NCBI GenBank assembly: GCA_963845185.1
Contig: CAWJRG010000006.1
Location: 32,709-96,708 of the forward strand
Reading direction: 5' to 3'
Source: an uncultured bacterium
Lineage (GTDB): Bacteria; Oederibacteriota; PGYV01; CAWJRG01
DNA: 64,000 bases
In this document: positions 62,881 through 64,000 of the stretch, piece after piece
Layout of the letters: the number at the start of each line of letters is the position of its first letter
Numbering within the stretch: position 1 is the first letter of the stretch
Position numbers and translations under genes: made by a program
The notes under the pieces: generated by a model
Databases searched by the model: none
Told to the model about the DNA's origin: nothing
What the model saw: the letters and a program-made list of their open reading frames with translations, nothing else

Positions 62881-62958
62881 GGGCTGGTAACTCAGTTTGG
62901 TTAGAGTGCCATCTTCACAGGATGGAAGTCGCCAGTTCAAATCTGGCCCAGCCCACCA
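62881..62958 (+). tRNA. tRNA-Val (anticodon CAC)
   Basis: GGGCTGG/CCAGCCC acceptor stem plus ACCA; anticodon arm CCATC-TTCACAG-GATGG; T-loop GTTCAAAT. Confidence 0.93.
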
Positions 62959-62991: not shown

Positions 62992-63020
62992 TTGACTATT
63001 CGCTGGACAGACTGAATAAT
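62992..63020 (+). promoter_or_regulatory. Promoter of the sORF-hypA-hypB operon
   Basis: TTGACT-17 nt-AATAAT. Confidence 0.55.
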
Positions 63021-63055
63021 GTGAAGTTCAAAATTTCAAACCGGAGGCAGTAATT

Positions 63056-63124
63056 ATGTGCAAAACGTGCGGTTGCGGCATGCCCAAGAAAACAAAAAAG
63101 AAAAAAACCAAAAAAGGCAAATAA
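63056..63124 (+). CDS. 22-aa peptide MCKTCGCGMPKKTKKKKTKKGK (CxxCGC nickel motif plus poly-Lys tail)
   Basis: GGAGG RBS at 63043-63047, ATG at 63056, TAA at 63122-63124; below the size cutoff of the ORF track. Confidence 0.7.
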   Translation: MCKTCGCGMPKKTKKKKTKKGK

Positions 63125-63152
63125 CTTTAGAACAATATTTACGGAGTAAATC

Positions 63153-63494
63153 ATGCATGAAGTCTCAATAGCCGAAGAAATCAGGGATATAGTCCTGGAA
63201 AAATTAAAGGAACATAAGGCAAGCAAGGTGAGTAAAATAAAATTAATGATAGGCGAGCTCACCACCATAGTACCTGAAGCACTTAAGTTTGCCCTTGAAA
63301 TAGTTTCGGACAAGACAGCAATGCAGGGCGCAAAAATACAGATAAAGACTGTAAAAACAAAAGTAAAATGCCTAAAATGCAAAAGGAAATTTAAAGCCGT
63401 TGATTTTGATTATGCCTGCCGGGCTTGCAAAAGCCAGGATGTCAGAATCATTGAAGGAAAAGAAATGATAATAAAGACTATTGATATGGAGTAA
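63153..63494 (+). CDS. hypA: Hydrogenase nickel incorporation protein HypA
   Basis: MHE.SIA, IGELT...PEAL.F, CxxC...CxxC, GKEM. Confidence 0.95.
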   Translation: MHEVSIAEEIRDIVLEKLKEHKASKVSKIKLMIGELTTIVPEALKFALEIVSDKTAMQGAKIQIKTVKTKVKCLKCKRKFKAVDFDYACRACKSQDVRIIEGKEMIIKTIDME

Positions 63495-63498
63495 CGAT

Positions 63499-64000
63499 AT
63501 GGCCAAAATCGATGTTTTTGAAAATATCATGAAGCGCAACGAGGCTAATGCCGCGAAAAACAAGAAAATAATAGGAAAGTCCCTGTGCATCAATATTATG
63601 AGCTCGCCGGGCGCAGGCAAGACAACCATACTTGAGCGCACAATGGAAATACTCGGAAAAAAATATAAAATTGCCGTAATTGAAGGGGATGTGGCAACAT
63701 CCAATGACGCGAAAAGAATCAAGAAATACAAAATACCAGTGTACCAGATAAAGACGGAGAACTACGGTGGCGGCTGCCACCTGGACGCGGCCATGGTAAA
63801 CAGCGCGCTTAAAAAATTAGGCGCTGGAAAGAAAAGGTATGATATTATTATAATTGAAAATGTAGGCAACCTTATATGCCCGGCTGATTTCGCGCTTGGC
63901 GAGGATAAAAAGGTGGTTGTGCTTTCCGTTACCGAAGGGGAAGACAAGCCGCTTAAATACCCTCTGATGTTTCAGGTGGCGGATGCGATGGTACTTAATA
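63499..64000 (+). CDS. hypB: Hydrogenase nickel incorporation GTPase HypB (runs off the window end)
   Basis: MSSPGAGKTT, IEGD, GGCHLDA, ENVGNLICPA.F.LGE, TEGEDKPLKYP. Confidence 0.95.
   Translation, partial: MAKIDVFENIMKRNEANAAKNKKIIGKSLCINIMSSPGAGKTTILERTMEILGKKYKIAVIEGDVATSNDAKRIKKYKIPVYQIKTENYGGGCHLDAAMVNSALKKLGAGKKRYDIIIIENVGNLICPADFALGEDKKVVVLSVTEGEDKPLKYPLMFQVADAMVLN

Follow-up and report, generated by a model that had tools for sequence, protein, structure and literature searches.

A conserved short gene upstream of hypA encodes a candidate free peptide with a HypB-type metal-binding motif

Introduction

The hyp locus described here raises the question of what a short open reading frame (sORF) bearing the metal-binding motif of one form of HypB could do in a genome whose own HypB does not carry that motif. 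According to the available portion of PMC13202556, GTPase-type HypB proteins occur in three forms: with no N-terminal metal site, with CxxCGC, and with CxxCGC plus a His-rich region. The same text gives the metal site of the G-domain as CHX30-34C and states that the MHE of HypA must be N-terminal. The CxxCGC site of E. coli HypB is described, in the sections of PMC12284835 available to us, as a picomolar, square-planar Ni(II) site formed by the N-terminal amine, Cys2, Cys5, and Cys7. Those sections also state that hydrogenase maturation in E. coli depends on this high-affinity site, that its nickel stays bound and is not passed to the G-domain, and that small peptide models of CxxCGC change conformation with Ni(II) and with Zn(II).

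The sORF lies in a 64,000-nt stretch of DNA from an uncultured bacterium, referred to here as the window, and was first pointed out in an initial annotation made from the letters of that stretch. We describe the locus, its conservation among relatives, and a wider set of similar sORFs, and we weigh what the encoded peptide may do.

Results

A 22-codon sORF precedes hypA

The sORF occupies positions 63056..63124 on the forward strand (22 codons plus TAA), starts with ATG, and encodes MCKTCGCGMPKKTKKKKTKKGK, which confirms the separate, unannotated 22-aa peptide with a HypB-type M-C-x-x-C-G-C motif that the initial annotation had proposed. C-x-x-C-G-C follows immediately after the initiator Met, and the MCKTCGCG head is succeeded by a Lys-rich tail (10 Lys in 14 residues). 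The three Cys residues of the head are the only ones in the peptide, the Fe(Cys)4 motif of desulforedoxin (C-x-x-C...C-C) is absent, and the number of His residues is zero. A Pfam search with the peptide returned no family.

A promoter, a GGAGG ribosome-binding site, and a distance of 28 nt to hypA had also been claimed for this locus. The Shine-Dalgarno sequence GGAGG is found at 63043-63047 on the same strand, 8 nt 5' of the sORF ATG, and the 28-nt spacer at 63125..63152 (+ strand) holds hypA's own GGAG at 63143-63146. The promoter, at 62992..63020 of the forward strand (TTGACT, 17 nt, AATAAT), is a sigma-70-like consensus match only, with 10/12 matching positions, and taken by itself it is weak evidence, as the region has 6 such sites, compared with 3.5 ± 2.1 in shuffled sequences. 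Upstream of it on the same strand lies tRNA-Val(CAC) at 62881..62958, detected by ARAGORN and, at 62.6 bits, by the tRNA model of Rfam, which gave the only match in an Rfam search of the region. The window also contains a class II dehydroquinase gene 5' of the locus, a feature common to 3 of the 13 hyp- or kinase-linked contexts described below.

A tRNA-Val gene precedes the sORF at other loci as well (L012-L015 and L027). At L012 and L015, the GGAGG of the sORF follows the tRNA after only about 12-15 nt (and the ATG after about 25 nt), too short a distance to hold a promoter. This may mean that tRNA and operon are transcribed together and that tRNA processing makes the 5' end of the operon's mRNA.

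The host HypB has a short N terminus

Downstream of the sORF, hypA (63153..63494, + strand) encodes a 113-aa protein that matches Pfam HypA with an E value of 3.5e-32 and shows an N-terminal MHE and two CxxC pairs. It is followed by hypB (63499..64000, + strand), which leaves the window; its product matches the cobW/HypB family with an E value of 7.9e-18 and has a short N terminus without CxxCGC. In full (locus L001), HypB has 225 aa if it starts at the ATG (MAKIDVFENI...) and 231 aa if it starts at a TTG further upstream, and neither form contains CxxCGC. The earlier statement that HypB begins with MAKIDVFENI and lacks CxxCGC thus holds here, and the motif is likewise missing from HypB in every relative examined. 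HypB is the single cobW-family match above cut-off in the genome, where hypC and genes for [NiFe]-hydrogenase large subunits are also present. As judged from its translation, HypB keeps the G-domain site as C-H-32 residues-C, which fits the CHX30-34C given in the available portion of PMC13202556. By this comparison the host HypB belongs to the first of the three forms outlined there, and what the second form carries as its head would be supplied by the sORF on a chain of its own.

The end of hypB is overlapped by 16 nt by the gene for a 719-aa PocR-GAF-PAS histidine kinase, which is followed by a gene for a 137-aa response regulator. This arrangement lies just past the end of the window, at 870-3454 of L149 (G000:C6). 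The response regulator after the PocR-GAF-PAS kinase has a single domain, and the kinase still adjoins the sORF where hypAB has moved (L027, L071).

The exact DNA motif ATGTGY-N6-TGYGGNTGY has 14 matches in the host genome, of which 13 are copies of a repeat and one is this sORF. The repeat is an identical 21-mer, ATGTGT...TGTGGCTGC, which reads MCLLCGC and occurs on both strands of G000 (e.g., C1:79611-79631 and C6:134684-134704); presumably, it is the start of a repeated mobile-element gene.

The sORF is conserved in relatives that carry hypA

We retrieved hypA loci of relatives by HypA homology alone, which yielded matches in 17 of 41 genomes searched; in the order to which the window belongs, 10 of 24 genomes gave a HypA match. 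The arrangement tRNA-Val, sORF, hypA recurs in four of the nine order relatives that carry hypA, with peptides that consist of MCK[TN]CGCG and a Lys tail and include MCKNCGCGVNKKKKKK, MCKTCGCGTKTKKTKKSKKTKK, and MCKTCGCGVTKKTKKKKKVKK. In a further genome (G006), hypE is followed by a gene whose 45-aa product is a variant, MCGVCECGCGCG with a tail rich in Lys (written MCGVCECGCGCGDVKRKK...KKKKQDA), and then by hypA, the start of which is overlapped by the stop of the variant by 8 nt; a homology search with this variant found only itself. In G003 (L027), tRNA-Val and MCAACGCGAKKKVKKKKK are followed directly by the PocR-GAF kinase gene, and hypAB is located beside hypE on another contig. The metagenome locus L071 likewise holds tRNA-Val, sORF, and sensor kinase together. 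Three genomes of the order (G007, G013, and G014) have hypAB and no sORF, which indicates that HypAB works without it.

In total, 7 of 10 hypA-positive and 0 of 14 hypA-negative genomes of the order had the sORF, a contrast that overstates the independence of the observations because the genomes are interrelated; one of the hypA-negative genomes is 61% complete. With metagenome contigs adding to these seven genomes, the conservation check that the initial annotation had suggested came out in favor of the sORF. The peptides of the two closest metagenome relatives are MCETCGCGMPKKAKKKKAKKGK and MCETCGCGMPKKAKKKKPQKGK. The tRNA-sORF and sORF-hypA spacers at these two loci are rich in indels, and the sORF still has 22 codons in frame. 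At one of them, L113, the sORF-hypA spacer contains a 117-nt insertion with several GC-rich inverted repeats, and both sORF and hypA are undisturbed.

Codon-level comparison of the 13 hyp- or kinase-linked sORFs points to constraint on the peptide. Among the invariant Cys and Gly codons (C2, C5, G6, C7, and G8), all five show third-position changes and none of the five shows a change at position 1 or 2; this invariance is partly circular for loci found by the motif pattern, and it is not circular for the four found through hypA. Peptide positions 3 (K/E/R/Q/A) and 4 (T/N/S/A) vary. The tails contain 105 Lys and 2 Asn, and G is concentrated at codon position 3 (43 occurrences, compared with 17 and 4 at the first and second positions), so the tail represents Lys coding and not merely A-rich DNA. 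We conclude that the sORF is a conserved, separate, unannotated gene, that it is under coding constraint and linked to hyp genes, and that it has a HypB-type motif.

A split of the motif from HypB is not supported in this phylum

The initial annotation suggested that the metal site had been split off from HypB. In a sample of 99 genomes of the phylum, the motif pattern matched in six, all of them these sORFs (a control pattern gave one match), so no HypB in these genomes starts with the motif. Further points against the proposal are the position of the sORF, which precedes hypA and not hypB, the lineage that keeps the sORF although hypAB has moved, and the presence of this peptide type in genomes without a HypA match. 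HypB lacks the motif in 10 of 10 sORF-positive, HypA-positive genomes looked at, so that the anticorrelation predicted by the initial annotation holds trivially. The NCBIfam models of the HypB prefix scored the sORF peptide below their cut-offs: HypB_prefix_1 at 17.1 bits over positions 1-18 (cut-off, 30) and HypB_prefix_2 at 12.9 bits (cut-off, 35).

Two other genetic derivations were considered and rejected. A split of hypB by a stop codon does not fit, since hypA sits between sORF and hypB. A frameshift fusion of sORF and hypA does not fit either, because the spacers do not agree in length modulo 3, runs of A stay short, and the MHE of HypA must be N-terminal, as stated in the available part of PMC13202556.

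Position and composition speak against a cis-acting leader

We considered whether the sORF acts in cis, either through termination and reinitiation onto hypA or by sensing Ni, Cys, or Lys, with the released peptide having no role. The spacing between sORF and hypA bears on this directly: the spacers measure 2, 3, 9, 12, 15, 28, 37, 145, and -8 nt and fall between 2 and 37 nt in 10 of 11 unique hyp-linked contexts. In 4 of these 11, only 2-3 nt come between the stop and the hypA ATG, which leaves no space for a separate Shine-Dalgarno sequence; together with the 8-nt overlap in G006 and the fact that the sORF is always the first cistron of its operon, this would suit a cis-acting upstream ORF. 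Translational coupling to hypA is plausible in these four contexts and is compatible with a functional peptide. In the window, however, hypA has its own GGAG, and at L113 the spacer is 145 nt long.

The region also lacks the structures that such a device might use. We found no terminator-like site there and no Rfam match apart from the tRNA, and the fold of 63022-63175 is no better than those of shuffled sequences (z-score, -0.29). Conservation acts at the amino acid level, the tail varies in length from 5 to 16 residues, which is ill-suited to an arrest peptide of fixed geometry, and other members of the family described below follow a gene or stand before one that is encoded on the other strand. 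Taken together, these observations make a purely cis-acting role improbable.

The A-rich Lys codons deserve separate mention, as they had been proposed to modulate hypAB translation as part of a leader peptide. Poly(A)-track regulation depends on uninterrupted A runs of about 11 or more. The longest run in the window sORF is 7, and across 60 sORFs with Lys tails none exceeds 8 (none has 9). When AAA and AAG codons were shuffled within each sORF, a mean of 8 sORFs had runs of at least 11; the mean longest run was 5.5 as observed and 6.98 ± 0.23 after shuffling, with 0 of 1,000 shuffles as low. AAG codons thus break up the A runs, which fits faithful translation of the peptide and speaks against a poly(A)-track device. 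With the variable spacer (-8 to 145 nt) and the lack of a terminator, an Rfam match beyond the tRNA, or a stable fold, the leader-peptide proposal is disfavored.

Similar micropeptides occur in many other gene contexts

We scanned public collections with the pattern ATGTGY-N6-TGYGGNTGYGGN, 0-18 nt, AARAARNNNAARAAR, which finds MCxxCGC heads followed by Lys-rich tails. The scan returned 28 loci in the genome collection, 77 in metagenome contigs, and 8 in viral contigs (113 in all), and none of these Lys-tailed loci is the start of a HypB. Genome and metagenome loci were pooled with the window into a set of 106 loci with 89 unique contexts. A Shine-Dalgarno core lies 4-18 nt upstream in 76 of the 89 contexts, compared with 630 of 4,639 other ATGs at the same loci (13.6%). 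The ORFs are short, with at most 45 aa in 83 contexts and at most 25 aa in 67, and 58 of the 89 are short with a tail that has at least 50% Lys/Arg and less than 10% acidic residues. A composition-matched control pattern, in which the Cys codons were replaced by GTY, found 0 viral loci where the pattern itself found 8, and a backwards control matched 0 of 401 genomes in the phylum of one non-Goldbacteria carrier, compared with 4 of 401 for the pattern. In an exact look-up among approximately 15 billion proteins, all six peptides of 39 aa or less that were queried, including that of the window, were absent, and four of 40-45 aa were present.

These controls also bear on whether the window sORF is a chance ORF without function. 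It has only 22 codons and was reported by no gene caller; yet given its conservation, the Shine-Dalgarno enrichment, the codon-phase pattern, and the control results, this explanation is scarcely credible.

Contexts of the window's type make up 13 of the 89, with hypA next to the sORF in 11 and the PocR kinase gene next to it in 2. To characterize the remaining neighbors, we used Pfam on 51 of 136 ORFs plus two sORFs in the genome set and on 95 of 123 nearest-neighbor ORFs in the metagenome set, the ORFs left out being mostly exact or near duplicates or not adjoining the sORF. A peptide of the form MCG[ST]CGCGKKKPKK is encoded 5' of ribonucleotide reductase in several records. Other family members follow genes for CysRS or HisRS in small archaeal genomes, follow arginine decarboxylase and agmatinase genes, lie between a Prismane-family gene and a desulfoferrodoxin gene, or precede rubrerythrin-like and superoxide dismutase genes; RuBisCO is also among the neighbors. 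Some sit after genes or ahead of opposite-strand genes. Among 10 carriers outside Goldbacteria, HypA was found above cut-off in three and not in the other seven; these carriers have genomes of 0.6-2.4 Mb and of uncertain completeness. The three HypA-positive carriers have five motif matches, all on contigs other than that of hypA. Given these non-hyp contexts and HypA-less carriers, the peptide type is not specific to hydrogenase maturation, and the hyp linkage is a property of the window's lineage.

The head also occurs beside cupredoxin genes and in fusions. At L104, L109, L132, and L136, MCxxCGCG sORFs lie at most 64 nt 5' of cupredoxin-family genes, and that of L104 overlaps its neighbor by 4 nt; in three of the four, the tail is acidic or mixed and a Shine-Dalgarno core is missing, and L136 has a Lys tail and a core. 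At a further set of loci (L034, L035, L039, L053-L055, L076, L085, L095, L108, and L115), an MCKSCGCG-KKEKKK head is fused to a desulforedoxin-like Y-x-CxxC...CC domain in proteins of 39-49 aa, whose neighbors include genes for one-domain desulfoferrodoxin (superoxide reductase), rubrerythrin, peroxiredoxin, and FMN reductase; the arrangement looks like a split desulfoferrodoxin. An 88-aa NifU-domain protein encoded at 2001-2264 of L041 begins with MCENCGCG, i.e., the head fused to an Fe-S scaffold domain.

The diversity of contexts raises the possibility that the product is a general-purpose metal or thiol micropeptide, used for Zn, Fe, or Cu buffering or for redox purposes, and that its place before hypA is an accident of gene order. 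The low share of hyp- and kinase-linked contexts (13 of 89) would be expected on this account, as would the other neighbors (ribonucleotide reductase, Prismane with desulfoferrodoxin, rubrerythrin with superoxide dismutase, cupredoxin, CysRS, HisRS, agmatinase, RuBisCO, and phage genes), the 7 of 10 non-Goldbacteria carriers with no HypA match above cut-off, the fusion of the same prefix to desulforedoxin-like domains in superoxide-reductase operons and to a NifU domain, and the retention of the sORF where hypAB has relocated. Within the order, however, the sORF is confined to hypA-positive genomes (7 of 10, compared with 0 of 14), it abuts hypA at 2-37 nt in 10 of 11 contexts or overlaps it by 8 nt in G006, and its motif is that of a known Ni site. 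We regard the general-purpose account as unlikely, although it ranks first among the alternatives.

On eight viral contigs (L141-L148), there are MCxxCGCG ORFs with Lys tails and Shine-Dalgarno sites; they span 15-50 aa and include one for the 15-aa peptide MCKSCGCGKKHKKKK. Such loci, together with tails that are mostly Lys, could suggest a polycationic, protamine-like binder of nucleic acids or other polyanions in which the head serves for crosslinking through metal or disulfides. This would leave the hyp linkage and the exact match to the HypB site unexplained, and the variants beside cupredoxin genes have acidic tails; we consider it very improbable.

Discussion

We see about an even chance that the sORF product is a free peptide with a Ni- or Zn-binding head that provides the high-affinity site of HypB in trans and belongs to an undescribed micropeptide family. 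Of the readings weighed, that of a micro-metallochaperone is the best supported, although we would not put it above an even call. We infer several of its steps for the sORF peptide, namely, translation, Met removal, metal binding, the identity of the metal, and hand-off to HypA/HypB. Removal of Met1 before Cys is expected from the specificity of methionine aminopeptidase, and translation of the sORF would then give a free 21-residue peptide. Its C-x-x-C-G-C head could bind metal through the N-terminal amine and three thiolates, just as E. coli-type HypB does at its high-affinity Ni(II) site. The poly-Lys tail may provide solubility or anchor the peptide to an anionic partner; recognition of positively charged proteins by SlyD is the topic of PMC11198818, as far as its available part indicates, and offers a lead for the role of the tail. 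In the Goldbacteria-type lineage, the peptide would be co-produced with HypA and a HypB of short N terminus from the head of the operon, and it might capture or hold nickel in trans for [NiFe]-hydrogenase maturation. In place of Ni, the putative site may bind Zn, Fe, or Cu.

The arrangement has a possible rationale in the chemistry of the two partners. Since the HypB-type site and the MHE site of HypA both need a free N terminus, the head cannot be fused in front of HypA, and a separate cistron is then the only way to encode the head at the start of the operon.

In the wider family, MCxxCGCG micropeptides with charged tails also occur beside other metalloprotein genes. Tentatively, and with the likelihood tilted against it, we suggest that these free "metal-hook" micropeptides of 13-25 aa form a widespread class that has so far escaped annotation, with members in bacteria, DPANN-type archaea, and phages, and that they provide portable, high-affinity metal capture for neighboring metalloproteins (Ni for HypA/HypB; other metals beside cupredoxin, superoxide reductase, and ribonucleotide reductase). 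If true, classical HypB would carry a fused copy of such a module as its N-terminal extension, and the peptide would not be a HypB fragment.

The initial annotation knew of no earlier description of such a free peptide, and we likewise found no description of a free CxxCGC peptide gene in the literature searched, mostly without subscription journals. The head has known chemistry; what appears undescribed is its stand-alone gene, the Lys tail, and the spread across bacteria, archaea, and phages. A HypB site in the form of a separate 21-residue peptide would be a natural system for studies in trans, in which the site can be added, removed, or titrated, and the sORF peptide would be a natural candidate, of very small size, for a role in chaperoning or holding metal. 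Because such peptides cost little to synthesize, the central claim lends itself to an immediate test. The family also shows that gene callers systematically miss recurring Cys-headed micropeptides with strong Shine-Dalgarno sequences. In a search of public sequencing runs for the stretch, no RNA run matched, and three DNA runs did, with word shares of 0.05-0.06.

Several known systems resemble parts of this locus. The peptide shares with E. coli-type HypB (NF053667) the M-C-x-x-C-G-C-G at the extreme N terminus, the link to hypA/hypB, and an expected site of N-terminal amine plus three thiolates, as described in the available sections of PMC12284835. It differs in being encoded by a separate cistron 5' of hypA, with a TAA after codon 22 and no connection to the G3E GTPase domain, and in having a Lys tail where E. 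coli-type HypB has a linker and a His-rich region. The short HypB of the H. pylori type (subgroup 1) in PMC13202556 is like the host HypB in its short N terminus, its lack of an N-terminal metal site, and its G-domain C-H...C, and the available part of that paper mentions no free CxxCGC peptide. Hpn and Hpn-2 of gastric Helicobacter are, in the available text of PMC4671568, small stand-alone nickel-binding proteins that serve Ni enzymes; they are His-rich, whereas the 22-aa sORF peptide contains three Cys but no His and is predicted to offer a single site.

In attenuators, too, an operon is headed by a short leader-peptide ORF in which one amino acid abounds, but here alternative hairpins and a terminator are missing, the spacer measures 2-37 nt, and the operon is unrelated to lysine. 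The 39-49-aa desulforedoxin-like proteins, some of which are named "desulfoferrodoxin" by NCBI, have an identical MCK[ST]CGCG head and a Lys-rich KKEKKK; they differ in their Y-x-C-x-x-C...C-C-G domain and in their location in rubrerythrin, superoxide-reductase, and peroxiredoxin operons. Finally, the Ni-hook of nickel superoxide dismutase is a short N-terminal peptide that holds square-planar Ni through a free amine and Cys thiolates; its sequence differs from that of the sORF peptide, and it is part of a folded enzyme.
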